A DNA stretch of 64,000 nucleotides from Bacilli bacterium (GTDB lineage Bacteria; Bacillota_I; Bacilli_A; RFN20; CAG-826). Below are positions 24,957 through 47,854 of this stretch, piece after piece. The position numbers and the translations under genes are program-made. The notes beneath the pieces are model-generated. The model ran no database searches. It saw only the letters and a list, made by a program, of their open reading frames with translations, and had not been told where the DNA came from. The stretch covers positions 179,267 through 243,266 of the forward strand of contig JAFSOD010000004.1 in assembly GCA_017447165.1 (NCBI GenBank), in the 5' to 3' direction. Numbering within the stretch: position 1 is the first letter of the stretch; every line of letters begins with the position of its first letter.

Positions 24957-25583
24957 TTAATATTCTTCTTTCTTTTTCTTTTTGGTTTTCGCTATTACTA
25001 ATATTTCGATAGTTTTTGCTCCTTTGCTTCTTAATAAATCGATTGAAGTTAAAAGTGTGCTTCCTGTAGTCATAATGTCATCTACTAACAATATCTTTTT
25101 ACCCTTCATTGATATATTTTCATCTATTTCTAAAACATCATTTATCTTATGTCTTCCAAGTGAAGATTGATCAGACTGTTTATGCGCTGTTTTCTTCTTC
25201 AAAATGGGTAATTCTTTAAGCTTTAAACTCTCAAAAATCGCTTTTACGTGATTAAAACCACGCCGCTCATCATCAATGTGATAAGAAGGTATATAGACGA
25301 TATGATAACCATGATATTTTAACTTCAAAAAAGTTAGATATCGATCTAAGAAAACATCCTTTAATTCATAGTCATAACAACCTTTAAATTTATAGATTAA
25401 TTCCTTTATAAAATCTGTATATTCATAGACGGCTGTCCCTTTTATATTTCCTATTTCGAAAGACACAAATTTAGCCTGTAATTTACTAAAACAATCTCCA
25501 CATAAAATGTTCTTCCTTTTCAATAAGTTATATATGGAATTATCCGTTATTCTTTTAAAGCAAATTTTACAGAAATTATCCAT
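24957..25583 (-). CDS. comFC: competence protein ComFC (phosphoribosyltransferase-like)
   Basis: N-terminal CxxC...CxxC, C-terminal PRTase motif LLVDDIMTTGSTL. It overlaps the end of comFA. Confidence 0.85.
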   Translation of the reverse strand: MDNFCKICFKRITDNSIYNLLKRKNILCGDCFSKLQAKFVSFEIGNIKGTAVYEYTDFIKELIYKFKGCYDYELKDVFLDRYLTFLKLKYHGYHIVYIPSYHIDDERRGFNHVKAIFESLKLKELPILKKKTAHKQSDQSSLGRHKINDVLEIDENISMKGKKILLVDDIMTTGSTLLTSIDLLRSKGAKTIEILVIAKTKKKKKEEY

Positions 25584-26775
25584 TATCTAATGCCTCATTA
25601 TTCTTCTTTATTTCTTCTATAGATTCTTTAATATCGGAAGTCACTTTTTCGCATAGATAAATTACTTCTCCTTCTGGCGCATCAGCCTTTCTTCCCACTC
25701 GTCCTGCGATTTGAATTAAAGTGCCTTTTTCATATATTTTATGGTCAGTTTGACTGATAATTACCTGCAAATTCTTTACAGTTACCCCTCTTTCTAGTAC
25801 TGATGTAGTTACTAAATATGAAAATAAGTGATTACGAAATTCTTCGATTATTTCAGATCTATAATTCCTTTTAGAATGAACATAATTTCCACCTTTAACA
25901 AATAAGGAAATTACTCTATAGATTTTCTCACATAAATTAATGGTGGGAGCAAAAACAAATACAGGTTTGTTATTTTTCTTATATTCCTTTATTTTTCTAA
26001 TTAAATATAAGTATTGAAATAGCGTATTTCGTTTAACTATTTTGGGTATTGGAAGAGGATGACGATGAAAACGAACTTCTAATCTTAATATATCTTTGTT
26101 ATCTCCATGGAAATGATCTATTACTTCTTTAGATGGAGTGGCGGACATCATAACATAATGACCACACAAAGATTGATAGAACATGCTATGTAATGTTGGA
26201 TCATCTTTAAACGGAAAAGCGTCTATCTCATCTAGGATAATTAAAGAGAAATAATTCTTGTATCTATATAGTTGATGTGTGGTTAGGACAACTATATCGC
26301 CTTCTTTATCTTTTGTGTGCCCTCCATATAAGCAAACCACTTTGTTATATTTAAATATTTCTCTTAACCTATTATGTAATTCTATTGCAACATCTCTTCT
26401 AGGGAGCGCAAACGCGACCTTATCGCCACAATTAATTGCATATTTAATAATGTTGAGGCAAATTTCAGTCTTTCCTGATCCACATACAGCAAAAACAAGA
26501 CTATCTATTCCTTTCTTATAGTTCTCCACTAACTTATCGGATAATTCTTTCTGTTCTGGAGATAGCTCGTACTCTAAATGAATAGGTGCTTTCTTGGGAT
26601 AAGATGGCTTATGTTCTACTTCTTCACCACGAAAAGAGATACACCTACGACAATAGGGTTTGCCATTAAGATATCCAATTGAATGTATATCGGTGTTACC
26701 ACAAATAGGGCATTTATAAGTTTCTATGTTGCAACATCTCCTTTCTTTTGATTTAATATTTATACAACCTGTCAC
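25576..26775 (-). CDS. comFA: competence helicase ComFA (zinc finger plus DEAD-box helicase)
   Basis: 4-Cys zinc finger CPICGNTD...CRRC, Walker A AVCGSGKTE, DEID, SAT and helicase C motifs. The annotated start is GTG at 26775. The position that is ATG in the paralogous copies is ATA here (26725-26727). Confidence 0.85.
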   Translation of the reverse strand: MTGCINIKSKERRCCNIETYKCPICGNTDIHSIGYLNGKPYCRRCISFRGEEVEHKPSYPKKAPIHLEYELSPEQKELSDKLVENYKKGIDSLVFAVCGSGKTEICLNIIKYAINCGDKVAFALPRRDVAIELHNRLREIFKYNKVVCLYGGHTKDKEGDIVVLTTHQLYRYKNYFSLIILDEIDAFPFKDDPTLHSMFYQSLCGHYVMMSATPSKEVIDHFHGDNKDILRLEVRFHRHPLPIPKIVKRNTLFQYLYLIRKIKEYKKNNKPVFVFAPTINLCEKIYRVISLFVKGGNYVHSKRNYRSEIIEEFRNHLFSYLVTTSVLERGVTVKNLQVIISQTDHKIYEKGTLIQIAGRVGRKADAPEGEVIYLCEKVTSDIKESIEEIKKNNEALDNG

Positions 26776-26938
26776 GCAGAGCTAAATAGGCTCAGACAGG
26801 TTTTTATTTTAACTTAACAGGTTTTCTTCTTTTTATAATTCTTATTGTCAATCTATCATCAGGGTGTATTTTCATACCAATCAATTCTCTTGATCCAAAA
26901 TGCTTACGTTTACCCTGAACAGGTCTATTGTTCACAAA

Positions 26939-27127
26939 CTAAGCCTTAACTTTATTTTCGGTAGGATGTTTTAGTTTTGTCTGATGTCTATGTTGAGATG
27001 TTCCTGTGATAACAGCAATATAAATGTTCTTTTTATCATTCTTTAAAACAATTAAACCAGGGTGTTTGTTTACTATATAAAATTTTCCTTTTTCTAAATG
27101 TTTGTTATAAATCTTTTTCTTACTCAT
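26939..27127 (-). CDS. small basic protein, family A (short form), cassette 1
   Basis: 62 aa MSKKKIYNKHLEKGKFYIVNKHPGLIVLKNDKKNIYIAVITGTS..., homologous to the 29037-29441 product. SD AGGAGGAAAT precedes it. Confidence 0.5.
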   Translation of the reverse strand: MSKKKIYNKHLEKGKFYIVNKHPGLIVLKNDKKNIYIAVITGTSQHRHQTKLKHPTENKVKA

Positions 27128-27142
27128 ATTTCCTCCTTTCTG

Positions 27143-27424
27143 TTATGTATTTCGTGTTTTTGGGGATCCACATACGGCAAAAACTAAACTATCAATTCCT
27201 TTTTTATAATTCTCTACCAGCCTATCTGATAATTCTTTTTGCTCTGGAGACAACTCATATTCAAGATGAATAGGTGCTTTCTTTGGGTAAGATGGTTTAT
27301 GTTCTACTTCTTCGCCTCGAAAAGAGATGCATCTACGACAATAAGGTTTGCCGTTTAGATAGCCAATAGAATGAATATCAGTGTTGCCACAAACTGGACA
27401 AGTAAATGAAAGCTGGTTATCCAT
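27143..27424 (-). CDS. stand-alone ComFA N-terminal zinc-finger domain paralog (ends at the Walker-A position), cassette 1
   Basis: 93 aa. It is identical to ComFA residues 22-100 or so except K to R, yet its DNA differs at about 15-20% of positions, almost all synonymous. It ends ...AVCGSPKTRNT*. Its ATG overlaps the stop of the upstream small ORF. Confidence 0.6.
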   Translation of the reverse strand: MDNQLSFTCPVCGNTDIHSIGYLNGKPYCRRCISFRGEEVEHKPSYPKKAPIHLEYELSPEQKELSDRLVENYKKGIDSLVFAVCGSPKTRNT

Positions 27425-27821
27425 TTTTCTTGCCTTTCTTTTTATGTTTTGATTTAATACTGGTAGATGGTGTGCGCCCTTTCTGGGTTAAAGCTTCATT
27501 CGTTAGCTTTCCACCATTTTTTCTTTGCTCTTTAATTAGTGAAACATATACATCTATTTTTATTTCATCGGAAACTACTAAACGATACTTTTTAAGTTCT
27601 TGTCCTCTATGTCGGAGTTTATCTTTTCTTATATACTTTCTGAAATAAGATTTCTTGTCTGAATTGGGATTTGGATTTACATCAAATTCTTCATAATTTC
27701 CAGTTACAGTTGGACTATCAGTTATTTCGATATTTTCCCATGTTCCATCTTCTAGAACACTGATTTCTATTGATGGGTGGTATTTAGTTCTTTTGTTTTT
27801 AAATATTTTATATTTATTCAT
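27417..27821 (-). CDS. small basic protein, family B, cassette 2
   Basis: 134 aa. Shares motifs KxHPSIE..., NPNP and RKY(I/L)RKD...RGQ with the 28361-28687 product. Confidence 0.5.
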   Translation of the reverse strand: MNKYKIFKNKRTKYHPSIEISVLEDGTWENIEITDSPTVTGNYEEFDVNPNPNSDKKSYFRKYIRKDKLRHRGQELKKYRLVVSDEIKIDVYVSLIKEQRKNGGKLTNEALTQKGRTPSTSIKSKHKKKGKKNG

Positions 27822-27840
27822 GTATCAATTCCTTTCTATG

Positions 27841-28113
27841 TTATGGATTTGTTGTTTTTGGTGATCCACATACGGCAAAAACAAGACTATCTAAGCCTTT
27901 TTTGTAATTCTCAACTAACTTATCCGATAGTACTTTTTGCTCTGGAAACAGTTCGTACTCTAAATGAATAGGCGCCTTTTTAGGGTATGATGTTTTGTGT
28001 TCCACTTCTTCACCTTTAAAAGAGATACACCTACGGCAATAAAGTTTGCCGTTCAACATACCAATTGAATGAATATCAGTGTTACCACATACAGGACATT
28101 TATAAGGTTCCAT
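27841..28113 (-). CDS. stand-alone ComFA N-terminal zinc-finger domain paralog, cassette 2
   Basis: 90 aa MEPYKCPVCGNTD...CRRC...AVCGSPKTTNP*, about 90% identical to the ComFA N-terminus. It has its own SD AAAGGTGA. Confidence 0.6.
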   Translation of the reverse strand: MEPYKCPVCGNTDIHSIGMLNGKLYCRRCISFKGEEVEHKTSYPKKAPIHLEYELFPEQKVLSDKLVENYKKGLDSLVFAVCGSPKTTNP

Positions 28114-28142
28114 ATTGAATTATCACCTTTCTTTTGATTTAA

Positions 28143-28226
28143 AATAGCCATAGTCGTGGTCATCACTAGTTTGATGCCGGCCCACAGGAAGCTGTGTAGC
28201 TCCATTAACGGGGCTTTTTATTTTTA
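28143..28226. repeat. structured element copy 1 (two hairpins plus GC stem and U-run on the plus strand)
   Basis: GGTCATCActagttTGATGCC, then CACAGgaagCTGTG, then AGCTCCattaacGGGGCT followed by TTTTTATTTTT. It is homologous to 28975-29062 with compensatory changes in the middle stem. Confidence 0.5.
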
Positions 28227-28360
28227 CGGTTTTATAATATTTGCCATATATTGGGCATTTATAAGTTTCTATATTGCGTTACCTCCTTAATTTTGTTTTA
28301 ATATTTGTAGTTAGTGCTATCGGTTAATCCGACCAAAGCCCAAGTTTAGTAGGTTTTACA

Positions 28361-28687
28361 CTAACTTTTTTTGTTGTTTAAATAGTTTTCAATTTCAATT
28401 AAATCATCTTCTGATAGGTTGAATTTTTCCAAAAGTTGACCTCTTGTTTTAATTGGATCCTTTCTTAAATACTTTCTAACATATGCTTTATCATTTCTTT
28501 TTGGATTCGGATTTACTTTAAGCTCAATATATCTGTTCTTCTTAGTGGGGCTTGAAGTTACTTCTAAATTAATCCAAATAGTTCCGTTTGAATCTACTTC
28601 TATGCTTGGATGATTTTTTGTTTTTCTGTTTTTATAGAATTTGAATTTTTTGCTCATTTGACACCTCCTTTTTGTTATGGTTTTCAA
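28361..28687 (-). CDS. small basic protein, family B, cassette 3
   Basis: 108 aa. Same family as the 27417-27821 product. Confidence 0.5.
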   Translation of the reverse strand: MKTITKRRCQMSKKFKFYKNRKTKNHPSIEVDSNGTIWINLEVTSSPTKKNRYIELKVNPNPKRNDKAYVRKYLRKDPIKTRGQLLEKFNLSEDDLIEIENYLNNKKS

Positions 28688-28694
28688 GTCTTTG

Positions 28695-28952
28695 GTGATC
28701 CTTATATCGCATAAACTAAATTATCTATCCCTTTCTTATAGTTCTCCACTAACTTATCCGATAGTTCTTTCTGCTCAGGGGGACAACTCATACGATAAGT
28801 GAATTGGGGCCTTACGATATGAAGGCTTATGTTCCACTGCTTAACCCTTAAAATAGATACATCTTCGGGAGTAATGTTTGCCGTTTAGGTATCCTATTGA
28901 ATGAATACCAATGTTTCCACAAACTGGGCATTTATATGTTTCGATATTGCAT
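28695..28952 (-). pseudogene. degraded comFA 5' copy (zinc-finger fragment with frameshifts), cassette 3
   Basis: Nucleotide homology to comFA codons 1-90 runs through the conserved junction GGTGATCC..., but indels break the reading frame. The ORF track finds no ORF over 60 aa here. Confidence 0.55.
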
Positions 28953-28974
28953 CATCTCCTTAAATTTGATTTAA

Positions 28975-29062
28975 TAATGTCATGGTCGTGGTCATCACAA
29001 GTTTGATGCCGACTCGTAGGTAACTACGCAGCTCCATTAACGGGGCTTTTTTATTTTTTTGC
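28975..29062. repeat. structured element copy 2
   Basis: GGTCATCAcaagttTGATGCC, then CGTAGgtaaCTACG, then AGCTCCattaacGGGGCT followed by a T-run. It overlaps the 3' end of ORF 29037-29441. Confidence 0.5.
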
Positions 29063-29441
29063 GTTTTTTATAATAAGAACCGTAAATAGGATTACCTTTT
29101 TGTACTTTAATAATTAAATACATATCTTGGATGCTAAACGACATATCTGGATATTCTTTTTCTCCGTAATCATTTCTATCTCCTATAAAAGGTCTTTTCT
29201 TTATTAGCGATATTTCAACGTTACTATCGGTTGCATGTTTTAATTTGTAATATCCTTTTCTTAAACCTAGACGATCAAATTCTTCTTTGGTCATTGATCC
29301 AGTGATAATTGCATAGAAAGCTTTATCTTCATTATCAATTTTAAAAATTTGTCCAGGATGTCCACCTGGGCTACCATCTAAAACACGATAAAACTTGCCG
29401 ATTTCAAGTGTTATCTTGTGTTTTCTTTTCTTTTTACTCAT
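29037..29441 (-). CDS. small basic protein, family A (long form), cassette 4
   Basis: 134 aa MSKKKRKHKITLEIGKFYRVLDGSPGGHPGQIFKIDNEDKAFYAIITGS..., with a KOW/SH3-like G-x-x-Y-x-V...G...G-x-I pattern. The lysine-rich C-terminus is encoded by the terminator A-tract. Confidence 0.5.
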   Translation of the reverse strand: MSKKKRKHKITLEIGKFYRVLDGSPGGHPGQIFKIDNEDKAFYAIITGSMTKEEFDRLGLRKGYYKLKHATDSNVEISLIKKRPFIGDRNDYGEKEYPDMSFSIQDMYLIIKVQKGNPIYGSYYKKRKKIKKPR

Positions 29442-29478
29442 ATTTTCCTCCTTTCTTGTTATGTTTTTAGTATCTTTA

Positions 29479-29612
29479 GCGATTCACATACCGCAAAAAT
29501 AATCTATCAATTCCCTTCTTATAGTTCTCCACTAACTTATCTGATAGTTCTTTCTGCTCTGGAGACAGTTCATATGAAAGATGAATAGGTGCTTTCTTAG
29601 AATATGAATGTT
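29479..29612 (-). pseudogene. truncated comFA 5' copy (about 45 codons upstream of the Walker-A position only), cassette 4
   Basis: Homology to comFA covers only the segment ...HLEYELSPEQKELSDKLVENYKKGIDS.. and junction, then is lost. Confidence 0.5.
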
Positions 29613-29894
29613 ACTCTATGAAAAACGAAAACATTTCCTTCTTCATCAACGATATTTGCTGGGTGGTTGTTTTTTAAATAAATTCTGAAGTGCCTCCTGA
29701 AAGAACTATTTTTTGTTTTTGTTTCATTTTTTCTCCTTTATGTTATGTATTTATTTCTTGTAGATCAGGGCGGCCTTTATTTTTTTATAGGTTTTCTCCT
29801 TTTATAATTGATAAAAAACTCCCTACATTATATATAGAGTGGCTTTCTTCATTTTTTTGTGAAAAAAAGTTTAATAAATCTTTATAGGTATTAA

Positions 29895-29914
29895 AAAAAG
29901 GCCTATAGGCCTTT
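29895..29914. terminator. rpiB terminator
   Basis: AAAAAGGCCTATAGGCCTTT palindrome. Confidence 0.7.
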
Positions 29915-29935
29915 ATGTATTAAATATTTTTTAGA

Positions 29936-30373
29936 TTATTTTTCTAAGTCGTTAATCATCTCAACACGAGTTAAGTGTCTACCACCTTCAAATTCAGTGT
30001 TAAGGAAGATATCCACTCTTCTAAGAACATCTTCTAAAGCCATAAATTTTTGACCAAAGGAGATAACGTTTGCGTCATTATGTTGTCTCATTAATCTAGC
30101 AACTTCATCGTTATAGGCAATACCGCATCTAACGCCTTTGATTTTATTAGCCGCAATAGAGATACCCTCTCCACTAGTGCAGACAACAACACCAAATTGA
30201 CATTTTTTAGAAGCTACTTTTCTAGCTACTTCAGCGCCATATAAAGGATAATGGCAACTATCTAAAGAATAAGTACCAACATCAATTACTTCATGTCCTA
30301 ATTCTTTTAAATGTTCTGCGATCGCGTTTTTATATTCTAATCCGCCATGATCACTACCAACTGCAATTTTCAT
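29936..30373 (-). CDS. rpiB: ribose-5-phosphate isomerase B
   Basis: 145 aa. MKIAVGSDHGG, CTSGEGISIAANK, and catalytic Cys region typical of RpiB/LacAB. Confidence 0.9.
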   Translation of the reverse strand: MKIAVGSDHGGLEYKNAIAEHLKELGHEVIDVGTYSLDSCHYPLYGAEVARKVASKKCQFGVVVCTSGEGISIAANKIKGVRCGIAYNDEVARLMRQHNDANVISFGQKFMALEDVLRRVDIFLNTEFEGGRHLTRVEMINDLEK

Positions 30374-41316: not shown

Positions 41317-43011
41317 TTATTTACTAAACTTTCGTTTAATTAATAATAATCCAATTCCGAGCACACTTAAAGTACTTAAAATAATACTGGTAGCTTCTAC
41401 ACTACCTCCACAGCCTCCTCCAGCAGGTTGAGGAGCGACAACTTTTACTTTACAAGTTGCGGTAAGTCCACCATCTACTGTTTTTACAGTAATTGTAGCT
41501 TCACCTACACTTTTCGCACTTACTAAACCTAGGAATGAAACAGTAGCAACACTTTCATTACTTGATGACCACACTACTTCTTTATTATCTGCGTTTTCAG
41601 GTAATATAGTGGCTGTTAGTCGAACTTGTTCATTGAGCTTTAGTTCTAAGGTTTCTTTATCTAAAGAAATAGAAACAACATGAATCACTGGATCACTAAC
41701 TACAATATTATATGAAGCAGTTTTAGTAATCTCGTCTTCTGTATATGAAATATTAACTTTTTTAGTACCGGTAGAAGTCATGTCTGGCTCAGTTAAAGTA
41801 TATACTGTGTTAGATAATATTTTACTATCCCCAATAGTATAATTAGCAGTAACCACTAATCCTTCACTAGTGAAGGTATCGCCTAATTCAAAATTAGTTT
41901 TATAGCTTCCAGATAAGGTAATAGAAGATAATTCTTTAACTGGTTTAGCGTTAACAGTTACTTCACAAGTTGCGGAATAAATTTCATCATCAATAACTGC
42001 GGTTGCAGTAAGAGACGCATTCCCTTCTTGTAAAGCAGTAATAATAATCGGAGAATCTGACCTAGATGTTGTGGCGCTTAAACTTATCACATCCGGATTA
42101 TTATTCTCCCATGTAATAGAAGAACCATCAGAACTTGTCGCGGAAATAGTAGCTTCTGAGTCGACTTCTAAAGAAAGGGATTCATCCGAAATGGTAATGC
42201 CTTTAACAACTTCTCCACAAATTTGTTTTGTGGTTGCACTTTCATTACCCCAGATACGACACGCATATTCTGGATGGTCTACGAATGGATTTCTATTATG
42301 CTGATTACTATAAACAACATCATTTCTTCTCATATCATTAGAGTCTGGTTGATATTCTAAATGCCATCTAAGCATTGTTTCGATACTCTCAAAATTATCT
42401 TCTGGATCATAACCATACATTGCAGCCGCATACATTGTGGTTCTAGCAACAATTCCTCTTGCGACATTATGAGGGTCAAATAAATCTGATGTCTTTCTAC
42501 ATGTTGTTGGTTTTCCGTTATAGTCATTTACAACACTACCACCGGTAACAACACCCATTTTTATATTACTTCTTGCACCATTAACTTTGTTATCACTAGC
42601 GAAAATAATATGATTATCTTTTTCGGCTTTTGGATTAGATAACTTACTAGCAGGGAATGTATGTTCTCTATTCCAGCCAATACTTCCATGAACATGTTCG
42701 GTCTTTTTCACAGAATTTCTGGCATATATCAAAATCACGTTTGAAGAATTATTAGGATCCTCATCGGCAGCTTCGTATCTGGACCAATCATAATCGACAG
42801 ATACTCCACTTGAGTTGATAATAGACTTTAACTTGTTTAAAAGAGTATTACCAGTCATTGAATCATCAATTGAAGCATAATAATTCTCTGGAGCGTCCGC
42901 TAGAACAGGTGTAGATGTCTTTGCTTGTTTAAAAGAAAACGAACTAACAACCCCACCAATAGCAAAAGCACATAACAGCGATAAAGAAATAAATTTCTTA
43001 GATTTCATCAC
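41317..43011 (-). CDS. secreted endonuclease I-family (EndA-like) nuclease with Ig-like (Big_2-type) domains and C-terminal membrane anchor
   Basis: Signal peptide. Endonuclease-I-like catalytic region (EHVHGSIGWNREHTFPAS, ARSN) and tandem Ig-like domains. C-terminal PQPAGGGCGGS is followed by a hydrophobic helix and KRKFSK. Confidence 0.6.
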   Translation of the reverse strand: MMKSKKFISLSLLCAFAIGGVVSSFSFKQAKTSTPVLADAPENYYASIDDSMTGNTLLNKLKSIINSSGVSVDYDWSRYEAADEDPNNSSNVILIYARNSVKKTEHVHGSIGWNREHTFPASKLSNPKAEKDNHIIFASDNKVNGARSNIKMGVVTGGSVVNDYNGKPTTCRKTSDLFDPHNVARGIVARTTMYAAAMYGYDPEDNFESIETMLRWHLEYQPDSNDMRRNDVVYSNQHNRNPFVDHPEYACRIWGNESATTKQICGEVVKGITISDESLSLEVDSEATISATSSDGSSITWENNNPDVISLSATTSRSDSPIIITALQEGNASLTATAVIDDEIYSATCEVTVNAKPVKELSSITLSGSYKTNFELGDTFTSEGLVVTANYTIGDSKILSNTVYTLTEPDMTSTGTKKVNISYTEDEITKTASYNIVVSDPVIHVVSISLDKETLELKLNEQVRLTATILPENADNKEVVWSSSNESVATVSFLGLVSAKSVGEATITVKTVDGGLTATCKVKVVAPQPAGGGCGGSVEATSIILSTLSVLGIGLLLIKRKFSK

Positions 43012-43082
43012 TAATATTATAGACCTTTAAAAATATATGAAAAGGAGTGATTTTCTTCACTCCTTGTAAGTTATGTTAATAA

Positions 43083-45638
43083 TTATGCTGTTGCTAAATT
43101 AAAGACTGTTGGTGTAGTTGCCTTTTTAACAACTTGAGCGCCTGCTTCATAGGTTACAGTTAATAAGTTAGCAGCAACAGAGCCTTGGTAAAGACTGATA
43201 TTAATTGATTGATAATCTAAATAGCCATCAGCGAAGATTCTATAACCGTTTGCGAATTTAGACATATTAACGTCTGTGTCATAACTAGAGAACGTTGCTT
43301 TTAAAATGTTTTCAACAATTGTGTAAGTGAAGTGAACAACATATGGTCCAACTGCTTGAGTATAGTACACTCTTTCATAATATCCAGTTCCATCATCACC
43401 AAATACAAATCTATACTTTTGGACAACATTTCCACTTGTTCCATAAATATTACATTCATATGGGGTATTAGTTACTACTGATGTAGCAGGAACGCTACCA
43501 CTAACGGTAATGTTGTATGATGTGGTTTTAGTCACTCCGCTCTTGGTATAAGAAATAGTAACTGTATATTCACCTTCAATAGCCATATTATAGCCACTAA
43601 AAGTTAATTTACTAGCAGGAACTTCTTCATATTCGCTTGGGGTGCCTCCGCCAATAGAATAGAAGGCATAAACAGTTGGAGGTTCAAGAGTTTCATTAAG
43701 TTTATATTCAGTTTTTGGAGTTCCTTGGACGCTAATATGATCTAATACTTTAGGAGCGCCAGAAGTAGTCACTGTAATAGTGATATTCATCTCAGGCATT
43801 GTGAAGAAATAAACACCAAAACTATCCTTACTAATTTTAATTGAACTATCTTCAACAACATATGGTGTGCCAGCGGTCACTCCATCCACAGTAGCGATTG
43901 TGAACATAAATGGATCTTCGGCAGTGCATGGGTTTTCACTAGCAGCGTGTTTAGTAAATGTCACATATTGGACTTCCGCGAATGTCACAGTGTATTTCCC
44001 TAAGGCTGTAATTGAAGCGGAGAAAGTGACGTCTTTAGCAGGCATTGTAAATCTATAACCATTAGAAACGTCTGGGTTAATAGAGACGACAATAGAACTA
44101 TCTTCCACGATAAATGGAAGACCATTTAATTTATATCCACTATTAGGGGAAACAATAATTGTGACTAAAGAACCAGTTTGAACATTATTTAAATCAAGTG
44201 ATCCTGTTGCTTCAGCAATATAGGCATTAGAAACATCATCAATTGTTAATTTATAGGTTTCAGAAGCTACTTCAGTAACATTAGCACTGATAGCAACATC
44301 CTTTTCAGGCATAACAAATGAATAAACTGTTCCAGAAACTTGACTCACTGGAGTGGAATCGTTCACTAAGAATGGGGTACCCACTAATTGATAGCCTTCA
44401 TCAACTCTAATATAGAATTTAACAGAACTTCCTGGAGCGTATTGAGATTCACTAGTTCCTGAAAAATTCATAGTGGCATGAGCGACATTAGCAAAGCTAA
44501 CTGTGTATTTAGTAGTTGAAGATGATTTCACATTAACAGAGAAAGTGATGTCTTTAGCAGGCATCACAAATACCCAACCATTTTGAGCGGTATCACTCTT
44601 AGTAACTATAATAGAGGCATCACCAACGATAAATGGTTTACCATCAAGTTCATACCCAGCTTCAGGAGTAACAACGATAACTACAACTTGGTTTTCCACT
44701 AAATGGTCTAAATCTTCAACGGAATAATGTTTACTTAATGTGACGTGAGCGACATTATCTAAAGTACATTTATAAGTATCGGCTTGTCTTTCTACTATAG
44801 TTGCACTAATAGAGACATTTTTAGATGGCATAGTGAAACTATAAACATCATTTTTATTCTTAGAGATTGTAATAGAGCTATCGCCAACAATAAATGGAAG
44901 TCCACTTAATTCATAACCGTCATCTATAACAACTATAAACTCCACTGTTGTGCCTGGATAATTAGATTCTTTACTAGTTCCAGAGTATTCAAATCTAGCG
45001 TGTTCTACACTAGCAAATGTTGCGTTATATTTTTCTCCGTGTTCTCTAGCGCCTAAATAAACTGTTAAGTTACTCTTTGGCATTACAAAGGAGAATTCAC
45101 TTTCAGTGAGATCATATTCTTCAAATTGGTCGTAGAAAGAATCATCCACATTAGGTCCGGTAACAAAGAAACCTGTGTAATCGTATTCTTCTTTAACAGA
45201 GACTTTAATAGACACAGTAGCGCCATTTTTCGCACTACTAGGTAAAGTAGAATTAACTAAATCTAAAGCACTTAAATCTTGAGAGTTATTCACTAAATAT
45301 TGAATGGAATAATCTCTAACATCATCTTTGATTTTAACTGTAAAAGAAGTTGTCTTTTCTTTATAAGTGACTGTGATAGGTAAGGATTCTCTAACTACTG
45401 ATGAATCAAACCCGCTTAAAGAGTAGTCACTAACCACTTTATAAGTGCTATCATCATAGAAGGCGGTAACTTCTAAACCAGAGGCATCAAATTCTTCTCC
45501 GATAACATATTCCGTTTTGCTCGGTAAATGAGTAACGGCAATATAATCTAAATTAGGATCTTGAGGAGCATCTCCTCCGCAGCTGGTGATCGCTAAAACT
45601 GATAGTAGTGATGTAAATACTAGTGTTCTTAGTTTCAT
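43083..45638 (-). CDS. repeat-containing surface lipoprotein
   Basis: Lipobox LAITSCGG after MKLRTLVF (start moved from 45680 to the ATG with SD GAGGGGGG). Five tandem repeats of about 105 aa, each YxxTFAxVxHAT...PG(S/T)xVxF...VxxSxxTPxV. Confidence 0.65.
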   Translation of the reverse strand: MKLRTLVFTSLLSVLAITSCGGDAPQDPNLDYIAVTHLPSKTEYVIGEEFDASGLEVTAFYDDSTYKVVSDYSLSGFDSSVVRESLPITVTYKEKTTSFTVKIKDDVRDYSIQYLVNNSQDLSALDLVNSTLPSSAKNGATVSIKVSVKEEYDYTGFFVTGPNVDDSFYDQFEEYDLTESEFSFVMPKSNLTVYLGAREHGEKYNATFASVEHARFEYSGTSKESNYPGTTVEFIVVIDDGYELSGLPFIVGDSSITISKNKNDVYSFTMPSKNVSISATIVERQADTYKCTLDNVAHVTLSKHYSVEDLDHLVENQVVVIVVTPEAGYELDGKPFIVGDASIIVTKSDTAQNGWVFVMPAKDITFSVNVKSSSTTKYTVSFANVAHATMNFSGTSESQYAPGSSVKFYIRVDEGYQLVGTPFLVNDSTPVSQVSGTVYSFVMPEKDVAISANVTEVASETYKLTIDDVSNAYIAEATGSLDLNNVQTGSLVTIIVSPNSGYKLNGLPFIVEDSSIVVSINPDVSNGYRFTMPAKDVTFSASITALGKYTVTFAEVQYVTFTKHAASENPCTAEDPFMFTIATVDGVTAGTPYVVEDSSIKISKDSFGVYFFTMPEMNITITVTTSGAPKVLDHISVQGTPKTEYKLNETLEPPTVYAFYSIGGGTPSEYEEVPASKLTFSGYNMAIEGEYTVTISYTKSGVTKTTSYNITVSGSVPATSVVTNTPYECNIYGTSGNVVQKYRFVFGDDGTGYYERVYYTQAVGPYVVHFTYTIVENILKATFSSYDTDVNMSKFANGYRIFADGYLDYQSINISLYQGSVAANLLTVTYEAGAQVVKKATTPTVFNLATA

Positions 45639-45652
45639 ATAGGTCCCCCCCT

Positions 45653-47674
45653 CTAGAAATCTTGAGCGTATAATTGACATCTGATTTGCACTATACCTGT
45701 ATAGTTATTGATATCAATCTTGTCTAACGCGGTGATTGAGACATAAGAATTTTTATCTTCTAAAAAGAAATTGTAGACATTCATAATGGTGTTATAAACG
45801 CGGTTAGTGAAGCCGTATTCTTCAAGTTGAGAAGCAAATACCGATAAATCTTCTAAAGCGACATTATAGTCATCAATATAGAAGTTTGTAGGTGTTCCTT
45901 GATAGAACTTATATAAAGGATTAGAAGAATTATAAGCAAAGTTAGTAACTCTAGTTACTTCGCCACCAAATAATAGTTCTGGTAAGACTCCTTCTCCAAC
46001 ATAATCTTGAATAAATCTGTTATATCTAGAAACAGTGTTCACCGAAGTAGTTTCGGATACCATATATTCAACATAGAATTCACCTTGAGGATAATAATAA
46101 CCATAGGTTCTTCCATTATATGATTCAGTTGGTAAGTGATAAGTCATATAGACATCGTAGTTAATGATTCTTAATCCTTTTTCAATGACATAGCGATAAT
46201 GACAATCATCATTACCTACTTGAATATAGTTAGCAGCAATTAATTTATTACGGTAAGACTCTCTTAAATCACCACAAGAATAATCTGTGACATATAAATA
46301 TGTCCCTTTATAATTTGTATCCGCATCAAAATACATTGAATAGGACACTCCATCAATGAACGGAGGGACAACTCCACCATAATAAGTTGTGAAATATTCA
46401 ATATCAGTCTCACTCCACTCAGTTGGGGCGACAAAGATAAAAGATGGATCTTCAATATAAGACTCTAATGTTTCATCAATGACTCCACCGACGGTGACAT
46501 TTAAAGTACATTTACCTGGCTCATTAACCATTTCCCCTTTTTCACTATCCCAATAGATAACTCCAAAGTTAACAATAAGATTAAACTTATTATTGGCTTT
46601 ATATTCTGCGATAATACTCTCTGGAGCTTCTAAGTTAGCGGTTTGAGAGTAACCAGTAAAGTTACATCCAGTAGCGATAGAATAATAATTAGTGGTTATA
46701 AATTTTGTATGATCTTTTTCATCTTGAACCCATTTTGCGTTTAAAACATTTTCTATTACGACATCATAGATGTCACTGGCCATATGTTCTAAGGAAGTGG
46801 TATAGAAACTACCAATAGATAAGGCTTCAGTTTCTGCTGATTTTCTAAAGACTACAAAGCCTTGGTCTTTTTGATAAATAAAGCCACCATAAAGACCTAA
46901 ATCTTCATCGTAGTTATAATATGCTTTGTTATTGAGGTTGAAGTATTTAGCCTTTAATCTCTCATCAGTGTGATAGAAGATATAGGATTCTAAATCAATC
47001 GTGTAATTATGGTTTTCTAAAACATCATAAACAAGATTAGAGAAGGCTATTCCTTCATCATTATCGCCAAATACAGAATCATCTAAACCTTCAGGTTCTC
47101 TAACATAGATTTCAAATGTATCGAATTTTCCATCGTACTTAACTTTAACGGTTCTCACTCCTACAGTAGAAAGATCTTCCGCTCCTTCAATCGTAGCGAG
47201 TTCACTGACATCGAGAATAGAACCATCAGAAAATCTAGCGGTTACCACCATTCCCGTTGGATCGAATTCGTCCCCTGGAAAATAGTTAGTTTTAGTAGGT
47301 AGAACATCAACATCCACGGATTTTAATGATTTCACTGAGCTTCTTTCTTGAACATAAATCATAAAAGAATCAGAACATCCTTCATAAGTAATAGTGACTT
47401 TTCTATCACCTTTAGATATGGTGGTCGCCCCTTCAATCGTGCAATCAAAGATATCGACTGGATTATGGTCGTTATTTTTATAATAGGCTTCTATTTCAAT
47501 TCCATCAAAATTCACAGAATCGTTAACGTAATAATTAACTTTATCTGGTTCTTTTAAAATGGAAATATGGTCTAACGCGGTTGGATCAACTGGTTCGGGA
47601 TTCTCTCCACAGGAGGTCATAATAAAAGGCATAGAGAGAAGGACAGATAAGATAAATGAAATCTTTTTTCTCAT
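45653..47674 (-). CDS. surface lipoprotein with N-terminal Ig-like domains
   Basis: Lipobox IMTSCGEN and start ATG 47674 with SD AGGAGG. Two Ig-like modules (VEAYYKNNDH..., VTARFSDGSI...) are followed by a large Y/N-rich domain. Confidence 0.6.
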   Translation of the reverse strand: MRKKISFILSVLLSMPFIMTSCGENPEPVDPTALDHISILKEPDKVNYYVNDSVNFDGIEIEAYYKNNDHNPVDIFDCTIEGATTISKGDRKVTITYEGCSDSFMIYVQERSSVKSLKSVDVDVLPTKTNYFPGDEFDPTGMVVTARFSDGSILDVSELATIEGAEDLSTVGVRTVKVKYDGKFDTFEIYVREPEGLDDSVFGDNDEGIAFSNLVYDVLENHNYTIDLESYIFYHTDERLKAKYFNLNNKAYYNYDEDLGLYGGFIYQKDQGFVVFRKSAETEALSIGSFYTTSLEHMASDIYDVVIENVLNAKWVQDEKDHTKFITTNYYSIATGCNFTGYSQTANLEAPESIIAEYKANNKFNLIVNFGVIYWDSEKGEMVNEPGKCTLNVTVGGVIDETLESYIEDPSFIFVAPTEWSETDIEYFTTYYGGVVPPFIDGVSYSMYFDADTNYKGTYLYVTDYSCGDLRESYRNKLIAANYIQVGNDDCHYRYVIEKGLRIINYDVYMTYHLPTESYNGRTYGYYYPQGEFYVEYMVSETTSVNTVSRYNRFIQDYVGEGVLPELLFGGEVTRVTNFAYNSSNPLYKFYQGTPTNFYIDDYNVALEDLSVFASQLEEYGFTNRVYNTIMNVYNFFLEDKNSYVSITALDKIDINNYTGIVQIRCQLYAQDF

Positions 47675-47854
47675 ATACACACCTCCTTGTTAATAAATAA
47701 GCAACTTTTAACCTTATATAATAAGTTAAGTTCTCTTTATTTTACACGAATTTTTAGAAAATGACACTAAAGTAAAATAAAAGAGAAACAATTAGTTCGT
47801 CTGAATCGCTTTTTTTGCTTCTCTTTAATTAAGTTATATTTATTAAAAAATTAA

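Follow-up and report, generated by a model that had tools for sequence, protein, structure and literature searches.

A variable array of toxin-like gene cassettes and comFA fragments between rpiB and comFA in uncultured Bacilli

Genomic islands that target tRNA and tmRNA genes bring with them a copy of the target end that they displace, such that the target remains functional, and serial insertions of this kind yield tandem arrays that include gene fragments. The orphan cassette arrays of CdiA-CT/CdiI and MafB follow the same displacement logic as those of Rhs. In Rhs loci, orphan modules that have been displaced are retained together with a fragment of the conserved region (PMC3967940). The 5' half of comFA is a prophage target in Bacillus cereus and B. 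thuringiensis (PMC4774983), and prophages insert elsewhere in streptococci (PMC12378983). Here we examine the interval between rpiB and comFA in a Bacilli bacterium (assembly GCA_017447165.1, contig JAFSOD010000004.1), within a 64-kb stretch that we call the window and to whose positions our coordinates refer. We conclude that this locus is real, widespread and dynamic, and no description of it was found in the literature searched. Our best explanation, which we hold with somewhat more belief than doubt, is that the interval is a cassette array driven by recombination, in which slots for single cargo genes are separated by copies of the comFA 5' region that persist as relics.

Reading of the minus strand together with tblastn identifies six head-to-tail units between rpiB and comFA (Table 1). 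A preliminary description, made from the letters of the window alone, had proposed a tandem array of four or five units; the head-to-tail arrangement stands, but the count was too low. Each unit comprises a copy of the comFA 5' region cut at the Walker-A codons, followed by a junction of ~35 nucleotides (nt) that includes a ribosome-binding site (RBS), and then by a small basic open reading frame (ORF) that we refer to as cargo. A repeat search recovers three near-full copies of the comFA 5' repeat (292 nt each, with 688/698-nt spacing and 77-82% identity) along with partial copies, as well as five copies of the 35-nt motif. The truncated copies end with GS-PKT-(R/T)-(N/K)-(T/P)-stop where ComFA has the Walker A sequence GSGKT. 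This ending had been recognized in the preliminary description, and we find it conserved in more than 100 metagenomic protein clusters. The order of the small ORFs had been given as A-B-B-A, which is roughly correct given that A1 and A2 form one BLAST cluster and B1 and B2 form another. However, A2 is not an intact ORF but part of a frameshifted D-type gene, whose two halves align with the N- and C-terminal parts of intact proteins of 107-144 amino acids (aa) at the related loci L024, L026 and L029 (L-numbers denote the related loci or genomes that were compared). A C-family remnant at the distal end of the array matches residues 4-34 of the 128-aa C-family protein of L009 with 90% identity by tblastn.

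The array is not an assembly artefact, because at least 20 contigs that were assembled independently from different samples, including one of 718 kb, carry it in identical form. This result removes an objection that the preliminary description had raised against itself. A 2.9-kb metagenome contig (L104) was considered as a possible cassette vehicle. Positions 1727-2865 of this contig correspond to part of the array at 99.8% identity, and positions 1-1726 are unrelated and carry a gene with a DnaB_2 domain, such that A1 is placed beside DnaB_2. We rejected this candidate as most likely a chimeric assembly, because nothing in its left part matches the window locus and the matching part begins in an A-rich run.

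Comparison with related genomes demonstrates that the content of the interval changes readily. The hosts are uncultured rumen and gut Bacilli, whose records are labelled Erysipelotrichaceae, Bacillales or Bacilli bacterium. We annotated 94 related loci with tblastn, 71 of which hold both rpiB and comFA. The site is empty (a gap between the two genes of <140 nt) in 22 of these 71 loci, and the remainder carry inserts of 0.2-3.9 kb. Presence/absence polymorphism and empty sites, which the preliminary description had pointed to as features to look for among relatives, are both found. Occupied sites contain from one to five cassettes in an order that varies among loci, and their cargo belongs to families A/D, B1/B2 and C, to one rare further family, or to a 330-aa DUF1016/YhcG protein. 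Six genomes (L033, L025, L034, L040, L031 and L041) encode SecA proteins that are 98-99% identical to that of the window and have wholly different cassette content, which consists of DUF1016 only in L033, A only in L034 and C only in L040. When the window is aligned with the conspecific L033, collinearity ends just past the rpiB terminator and restarts ~15 nt before the comFA Walker-A codons. The two comFA genes are 93-100% identical 3' of Walker A versus 76-90% identical 5' of it, and the GSGKT codons at 26467-26481 mark the right breakpoint of the variable region. In the single-cassette genomes L001 and L007, there is no recognizable upstream comFA copy.

No recombinase gene was found in any of the locus gene tables examined or among the cargo ORF clusters, and neither an integrase nor a large element lies between comFA copies in about 80 loci. 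Likewise, the flanks of the array lack integrase and transposase genes, including any IntI-type integrase domain, in the gene tables of the relatives' loci and in a Pfam scan of the large window ORFs, as had been noted from the window alone.

The cargo genes are far more similar between genomes than are the host genes around them. B2 is 97-98% identical in nucleotide sequence between the window and L059, L084, L092 and L013, whereas the same comparisons yield 78-80% for secA, ~62% for the 3' part of comFA and 68-77% for rpiB. B1 and C exhibit the same discordance between cargo and host-gene identity, and copies of B1 with 94-99% aa identity are present in L049, L055, L013, L027 and L035. Cargo genes evidently move horizontally, because 97-98% identical copies reside in genomes whose secA genes are only ~79% identical. 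The ends of the transferred tracts are sharp. Sliding-window identity, calculated for four or five independent genomes, reveals a near-identical tract that extends from the junction to the start codon, or the first few codons, of the next comFA copy. The comFA copies that flank the transferred cargo are of the host's own type, and those located upstream of the 98%-identical B2 in other genomes are only 59-67% identical to the copy in the window. Given these tract ends and the host-type flanking copies, the unit that has moved most recently evidently consists of junction, cargo and tail or leader without the zinc-finger copy.

These findings affirm the earlier proposal of mobile cassettes tied to the comFA 5' region, in that cargo has been transferred horizontally and the 5' part of comFA has been replaced with a break at Walker A. 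The more specific proposal of Campbell-type integration of circular elements is not demonstrated. The recent tracts leave out the comFA copies and reach from the junction to the next comFA start, which fits double-crossover replacement of cargo in pre-existing slots combined with unequal crossing-over.

The non-redundant loci contain 27 truncated comFA copies, of which 15 have degraded and 12 remain intact. In both the window and L020, intact copies sit closest to comFA and broken ones farther out, which is the gradient expected if new material enters beside the working gene and older copies decay. Our best reading of the comFA 5' copies is that they are displaced relics, about half of which have decayed, with the most decay in the distal copies. 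Within a single genome, the copies share 73-88% identity in DNA and 84-96% in protein. Consensus-type copies have a ratio of nonsynonymous to synonymous substitution rates (dN/dS) of about 0.04-0.06, with synonymous sites near saturation. For the truncated copies that are intact, we would explain the low ratio by their recent displacement from the working position.

An unusual pattern of conservation also marks the working gene. The N-terminal ~80 residues of ComFA have dN values of 0.02-0.06 among many cassette-bearing genomes versus 0.28-0.45 for the rest of the protein (window 26467-26727 and its counterparts in L017, L020, L022, L023 and L027; dS is saturated), and the N-terminal dN among empty-site genomes is 0.29-0.40. 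Between the window and the conspecific L033, dS is 1.56 for the comFA segment that encodes the N-terminal domain (NTD) versus 0.21 for the rest, and the conservation of the NTD is independent of host relatedness. Recent transfer of the comFA 5' part, as might be suspected for L022 (99% aa identity in the NTD versus 49% in the C-terminal part), was rejected given that synonymous sites are saturated (dS 1-2.5). Because of this saturation, the comFA 5' alleles can be read as an old, protein-conserved pool that is shuffled among genomes with the cassettes rather than as the product of a recent sweep.

The junction has the consensus GGATCnCCAAAGACACGAAAtCCATAACAGAAAGGAG, which is followed by 5-8 nt and then by ATG, and it precedes every cargo type including DUF1016. 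About 20 nt of the junction retain residual similarity to comFA past the Walker A Gly-Ser codons (GGATCAGGAAAGACTGAAAT...). On account of this similarity, the junction can be read as comFA sequence that continues in mutated form (GG to CC, and an insertion or deletion that creates a stop codon) and is fused to an RBS, and there are hints that it arose through recombination between the Walker-A region and the leader that precedes many comFA copies. When compared by eye, the junction at 27128-27163 resembles both comFA past Walker A (26440-26481) and the GACCACGACCATGG...AAAGGAG stretch of the A-type tail/leader; the tail stretches used for this comparison are 28121-28160 and 28975-29000. The leader (ATTAAAnCA...AAAGGAG) is located before 45 of the 55 comFA copies that follow a cassette and before none of the 21 copies that lie directly after rpiB. 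We assign it to the cassette system rather than to native comFA because of this distribution.

The right ends of cassettes differ by cargo type. The B2, C and DUF1016 cassettes have no separate tail, and their ORFs continue through the leader into the beginning of the next comFA copy, with an overlap of 8-14 nt (ATGGATAA at window positions 27417-27424; L009 7001-7014; L022 5989-6002). This arrangement implies that the cargo may be translationally coupled with comFA or with its truncated form, comFA'. Tails and cargo also reassort. In L014 (7650-7850), a D-type gene is joined to a B1-type tail, and in L041 (1587-1700), a DUF1016 gene is followed by an A-type tail that is missing from the DUF1016 cassettes of L022 and L033.

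Although the tails differ in sequence by cargo type, all of them fold on the plus strand of the window to form a stem and a U run at the stop codon of the cargo gene. Two of them (29030-29047 and 28198-28215) are called by a terminator scan, and the tails of the B1-type, D-type and B2-internal kinds have a similar fold that is conserved across loci, with a variable inner loop in the B1-type tail. The A-type tail at 28983..29058 has a folding energy of -23.3 kcal/mol (z -2.9), and its terminator stem includes an invariant G.U pair that corresponds to a C.A mismatch on the sense strand. We considered whether a 50-aa ORF within this tail (MELHSFLW...) encodes a genuine peptide, but rejected it and favour an RNA structure, given that the changes in the hairpin are compensatory and not synonymous. 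On the plus strand, the leader reads TGnTTTAAT, which by eye only resembles an extended -10 element, and no convincing -35 box for a forward-strand promoter in the tail was seen by eye. The presence of opposite-strand intrinsic terminators at cargo ends suggests control by antisense RNA. That short antisense RNAs might overlap the 3' ends of the cargo genes is the weakest link in this account. Rfam contains no known RNA that matches the array region, and a 15-mer taken from the A-type tail lacked specificity when used to scan metagenomes, adding only about four genuine tails. Four family-A database proteins (P0169, P0212, P0221 and P0225) have a C-terminal extension that reads through into the tail, which likely results from a lost stop codon or a frameshift.

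Cargo families A, B, C and D have no match to a sequence family in Pfam, NCBIfam, PHROGs or PADLOC even at E <= 1. Similarly, profile searches of PDB sequences with the cargo returned no match, nor did hhalign match family A to family B. Two AlphaFold models are confident, however, with mean predicted accuracy (pLDDT) values of 82 and 88.7. The modelled structure is an SH3-like beta-barrel with a C-terminal helix, as is characteristic of the CcdB/MazF fold, and a Foldseek search with the B2 model against viral models returns PemK/MazF toxins as the top matches. Thus, although it had been considered that the small ORFs might belong to a well-known family, they exhibit a predicted MazF/ToxN-like fold in place of any sequence-family match. 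The proteins are lysine-rich, range from 98 to 134 aa, are predicted to be soluble beta-barrels, and have in common a His-Pro motif and a Thr-x-Ser motif, whose positions seem, by eye, to be those of the MazF catalytic Arg-Pro and Thr. We conclude from the models that the small ORFs have a predicted fold of the MazF/Kid/CcdB/ToxN type. They are probably endoribonuclease-type toxins or abortive-infection effectors, with the putative RNase or toxin activity being what we infer from this modelled architecture.

Family B is small, because a full search with a hidden Markov model (HMM) found only 91 clusters at 50% identity among 1.8 billion proteins. Ten remote members have no significant family match in Pfam or PHROGs, and the wider family motif (HP...LTHS...NPNP.D...YLRK) is unannotated in both. 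A remote homologue (P0413, at L226 5001-5324 on contig NODE_1171 of ERZ27249446) is carried by an integrative element, where its neighbours are a divergent gene for an Xre-type helix-turn-helix protein, a tyrosine integrase, Rep_trans and a DDE transposase. This setting supports the idea that the cargo is accessory or selfish. The alternative cargo that occurs in relatives and not in the window, such as L022 5010-6002, matches the Pfam domains YhcG_C (1.2e-51) and DUF1016_N (2.4e-39) and the PADLOC PDC-S02 HMMs (E = 2.5e-114), and is a candidate phage-defence gene that is predicted to encode a PD-(D/E)XK nuclease. The theme that the cargo genes appear to have in common is a single-gene nuclease-type toxin or defence effector. 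As judged from the models, families A-D and their remote relatives on integrative elements constitute a new and previously unannotated superfamily with a predicted MazF/ToxN fold.

We envision the following mechanism for the cassette array. Each slot lies between a junction on its left and, on its right, a cassette-type leader followed by the beginning of the next comFA 5' copy. Homologous recombination would move cargo from one strain or species to another, and the DNA would most plausibly be acquired by natural transformation, which is the obvious route because these bacteria carry comFA and comFC. The junction and the leader/zinc-knuckle region would serve as short conserved homology arms, and cargo in existing slots would be replaced by a double crossover, one exchange falling in the junction and the other in the leader/zinc-knuckle region. 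Such replacement fits because the observed tract ends coincide with the junction and the next comFA start. The number of slots could shift through unequal crossing-over between the ~285-bp comFA copies. If a cassette were to enter with its comFA 5' segment and be resolved at the Walker-A patch, it would provide the working ComFA with a foreign N-terminus, and the resident N-terminus would be pushed upstream behind the junction as a GSPKT-stop relic, where it would then decay. Finally, if a stable toxin were paired with a labile antisense RNA, loss of the cassette by pop-out between the flanking direct repeats would be counter-selected, and this penalty would account for the persistence of cassettes in an unstable position.

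A more far-reaching form of this proposal, which we put forward as possible but doubtful, is that the array is a cassette system that needs no recombinase and travels by natural transformation. Its selfish genes for toxins or defence would employ the zinc-knuckle and Walker-A patches, the most strongly conserved coding stretches of comFA, as portable homology arms, and an antisense-controlled MazF-like toxin would render pop-out or transformational curing lethal. If this is true, any cell that imports cassettes necessarily carries the landing site, and the array would be a functional analogue of an integron based on homologous recombination, as well as a novel strategy in the contest that sets competence against mobile DNA.

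Several observations weigh against the recombination-driven array and its proposed antisense control. The account presumes natural competence in these uncultured bacteria. Homologous recombination by itself should leave more ragged tract ends, and the identical, sharp left end of the cassettes at the junction would fit equally well with a site-specific recombinase encoded elsewhere. Where comFA is divergent (about 65% nt identity), first entry into an empty site would demand recombination on very short conserved patches or an illegitimate event. The dN/dS ratio of ~0.05 for intact truncated copies means that these might have a function of their own. With regard to the RNA, covariation in the A-type tail hairpin is thin, with two compensatory base pairs in 13 sequences, and the antisense promoter, which the consensus scan did not call, is presumed. 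The site-specific alternative, which we consider unlikely, would treat the units as integron-like mini-cassettes, or as resembling integrative mobile elements exploiting Xer, that are mobilized by a recombinase of the tyrosine or serine type, such as Xer, whose gene lies elsewhere. Circles would be excised and re-insert at the comFA Walker-A codons, with the junction/Walker-A core and the hairpin tails acting as sites. Such a system would account for a left end that is the same and precise in every cassette regardless of cargo, for the sharp-ended transfer tracts, for 3' hairpins that keep their structure while tail sequences differ in a manner reminiscent of attC, and for the reassortment of tails with cargo in L014 and L041. 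However, none of the loci examined has a recombinase gene in or near the array, and on the antisense strand the hairpins lead into U runs, as is typical of terminators. Moreover, the right ends vary by cargo type, with no tail at all for B2, C and DUF1016, and the ~20 nt of similarity between the junction and comFA past Walker A is what would be expected of a recombination relic.

Other explanations assign different roles to the truncated comFA copies. They might be one half of two-gene modules, in which the zinc-finger protein is a decoy or antitoxin for the MazF-like toxin, or else a dominant regulator of ComFA/ComFC. The layout resembles mazE-mazF in order and spacing (a 90-93-aa ORF, 16-25 nt, and then a 100-134-aa MazF-fold ORF), with the small antitoxin gene ahead of the toxin as in type II toxin-antitoxin loci, many truncated copies bear the conserved PKTR(N/K)(T/P) tail, intact copies have a dN/dS of about 0.05, and the NTD protein is strikingly conserved relative to the rest of ComFA (dN 0.02-0.06 versus 0.28-0.45). 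Nevertheless, we hold such modules to be quite improbable. The upstream comFA copy is not transferred along with the toxin, as is evident from 98%-identical B2 genes preceded by copies of only 59-67% identity. In addition, 15 of 27 copies are degraded, the intact A1 and B1 of the window are flanked by broken copies only, the single cassettes of L001 and L007 lack a recognizable upstream copy, and the unrelated DUF1016 cargo uses the same slot and upstream junction. The stand-alone zinc-finger decoy with a partner protein that the preliminary description offered as an alternative is disfavoured for the same reasons. It is very improbable that the units are scars of repeated, integrase-mediated insertions of prophages or islands into comFA, each leaving an attR-proximal moron gene and a replacement comFA 5' end after deletion of the element body. 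Prophages are indeed known to enter the 5' half of comFA (PMC4774983) and to insert elsewhere in streptococci (PMC12378983), and one remote family-B relative resides on an integrative element. Yet no integrase or large element is present between comFA copies in about 80 loci, the junction abuts the cargo RBS in every cassette, unlike what independent deletions would produce, and known insertions disrupt comFA whereas comFA here is intact. Hardly any credence can be given to purely vertical tandem duplication and divergence of a segment comprising a small ORF and the comFA 5' region, without mobility, or to an assembly artefact. Although the repeats are head-to-tail with a period of ~690 nt, vertical descent does not explain cargo that is 97-98% identical across genomes whose housekeeping genes are 62-80% identical, nor differences in content between conspecific genomes and the existence of empty sites. 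An artefact, for its part, would have to recur in at least 20 independent assemblies.

The genes that follow the array are arranged in the order comFA, comFC and secA. ComFA is intact, both in the window, where the ORF encodes 399 aa, and in relatives. A survey of start codons indicates that the likely start of comFA is an ATA at 26725-26727 behind an AAAGGAG RBS. In 19 loci, which comprise the window and L013, L014, L023, L025, L027, L029-L032, L034, L036, L037, L040, L041, L049, L055, L072 and L082, comFA has ATA (ATC in L014) where other copies have ATG, 9-10 nt past the AAAGGAG(G) RBS, and there is no in-frame ATG, GTG or TTG upstream of the zinc finger. This suggests that comFA has a conserved non-canonical start codon, which perhaps keeps ComFA translation low. 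No tRNA was found in the window by ARAGORN. Farther away, at 41317-47680 on the minus strand, a 564-aa protein with Endonuclease I and Ig-like domains is encoded beside two large Big_3/InlB-repeat proteins. Given the com genes, this protein is of interest for DNA uptake as a possible nuclease that is secreted or displayed at the surface.

Table 1. Coordinates of the array and its boundary genes in the window, listed from rpiB towards comFC. J, junction; comFA', truncated comFA copy.
Feature	Position	Strand	Basis
rpiB, left (upstream) boundary gene	29936..30373	-	ORF; PF02502 in syntenic loci; terminator 29897-29914
J0, degenerate junction copy, distal array end	29728..29762	-	Compared with junction consensus
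Degraded C-family toxin-like ORF remnant (unit with J0: 29609-29767)	29609..29727	-	Stop or frameshift
comFA 5' fragment copy 0, codons ~58-95 only, frameshifted	29481..29607	-	tblastn NTD residues 38-75, 87%; repeat families D3, D6, D7
J1 junction: mutated Walker-A remnant, stop codon, RBS	29442..29480	-	Sequence versus consensus
A1, family A, intact 134-aa basic protein, MazF/ToxN-like predicted fold	29037..29441	-	
A-type tail, predicted antisense RNA/terminator module	28983..29058	+	Terminator stem 29030-29047, then T run
comFA 5' copy 1 with cassette-type leader, degraded (stops and frameshift)	28701..28975	-	Split tblastn matches, 77% and 70%
J2 junction	28658..28695	-	Sequence versus consensus
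B1, family B, intact, 98 aa from ATG 28657 (108 aa from TTG 28687)	28361..28657	-	ORF
B1-type tail: long hairpin and U run on antisense strand, ends at B1 stop codon	28300..28372	+	Fold; conserved across loci
comFA 5' copy 2: leader and first ~14 codons only	28241..28309	-	Repeat family D5; sequence
Orphan A-type tail, 3' end of deleted A-family gene	28121..28240	-	Plus-strand terminator 28198-28215
comFA' copy 3, intact 90-aa zinc-finger NTD, ends GSPKTTNP-stop	27841..28113	-	ORF; alignment; tblastn 89%
J4 junction	27822..27861	-	Left edge of 97-98% identical tract common to L059, L084, L013
B2, intact 134-aa protein, MazF/ToxN-like predicted fold; stop overlaps next comFA' start (ATGGATAA)	27417..27821	-	
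Stem and U run on antisense strand within B2 3' coding part	27445..27520	+	Fold; conserved
comFA' copy 4, intact 93-aa NTD, ends GSPKTRNT-stop	27143..27424	-	ORF; >100 similar 90-93-aa proteins
J5 junction	27128..27163	-	Sequence versus consensus
D-type toxin-like gene, frameshifted: A2, 62 aa, 26939-27127, and 43-aa ORF, 26804-26935	26804..27127	-	
D-type tail: strong hairpin and U run on antisense strand	26764..26801	+	Fold -15.7 kcal/mol, z -4.9; conserved in L029, L059, L067
comFA, full length	25576..26727	-	ORF; DEAD/ResIII/Helicase_C domains
comFC, downstream partner gene	24957..25583	-	ORF; Pribosyltran domain

The locus is of interest because, in many rumen and gut Bacilli, cassettes sit at the 5' end of comFA and yet do not inactivate it, and they are traded across species, whereas known elements disrupt competence genes. 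If the mechanism is homologous recombination on imported DNA, it would represent a simple and general route to cassette arrays without a dedicated recombinase, and such arrays would escape searches for mobile elements that rely on integrases. A MazF/ToxN-fold toxin with a convergent antisense RNA would possibly be a new pairing. Furthermore, the locus is compact and well delimited, such that cassette gain, loss and replacement could be tracked in time series of rumen metagenomes.

Among known systems, integrons resemble the array in having small, mostly single-gene cassettes in one direction, with conserved boundaries and structured 3' ends, in content that varies among close relatives, and in cargo that is rich in toxin and defence genes. 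Unlike integrons, the locus has no intI, attI or recognizable attC, and its boundaries are copies of a ~285-bp segment of a host gene. Hairpins do stand at cassette ends, but they are followed by terminator-like U runs on the antisense strand and are absent at B2, C and DUF1016. In contrast to MazF/PemK/Kid/CcdB and ToxN/AbiQ/CptN, the cargo proteins belong to no known sequence profile and have no co-inherited protein antitoxin upstream; the only upstream ORF that could encode a cognate antitoxin is the truncated comFA copy, which lies outside the transferred tract. The direct repeats of 34-45 nt that characterize type III toxin-antitoxin (TA) systems are absent from 26500-30000, as judged by Tandem Repeats Finder and a repeat search. 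The type I TA systems txpA/RatA and bsrG/SR4 of Bacillus subtilis offer a candidate parallel, in that an opposite-strand terminator at the toxin stop codon follows what reads by eye as a promoter-like element, which here would give an RNA of 50-80 nt antisense to the toxin 3' end. However, the type I toxins are short hydrophobic peptides, whereas the array encodes proteins with a predicted MazF fold, and its RNA is predicted only.

Prophages and islands that insert into competence genes (comFA, comK, comYC and comM) share with the array the targeting of comFA by mobile elements. They are large, bear an integrase and inactivate the gene, whereas the cassettes described here are 0.4-1.1 kb, integrase-free and accompanied by a replacement 5' part that keeps comFA. 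In this last respect they are like tRNA/tmRNA islands, where a replacement end keeps the target working, although those islands are integrase-mediated and replace the 3' end of an RNA gene. The Rhs, CdiA-CT/CdiI and MafB orphan arrays differ from the array in several ways. Here, the 5' end of the gene is displaced upstream rather than the 3' end downstream; the cargo has an ORF and an RBS of its own rather than being a C-terminal domain of the anchor, and is not followed by an immunity-like ORF; and the anchor is a cytoplasmic DNA-uptake ATPase rather than a secreted toxin. Even so, these orphan arrays are the closest analogue in logic. In both cases, entry by homologous recombination in a conserved part of a gene, as we propose for comFA, leaves a displaced orphan module that keeps a conserved fragment, and the arrays grow, decay and differ between strains. 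The displaced modules with fragments of the conserved gene and the conspecific variation that define Rhs- and Cdi-type loci are thus found between rpiB and comFA as well, in mirrored orientation.

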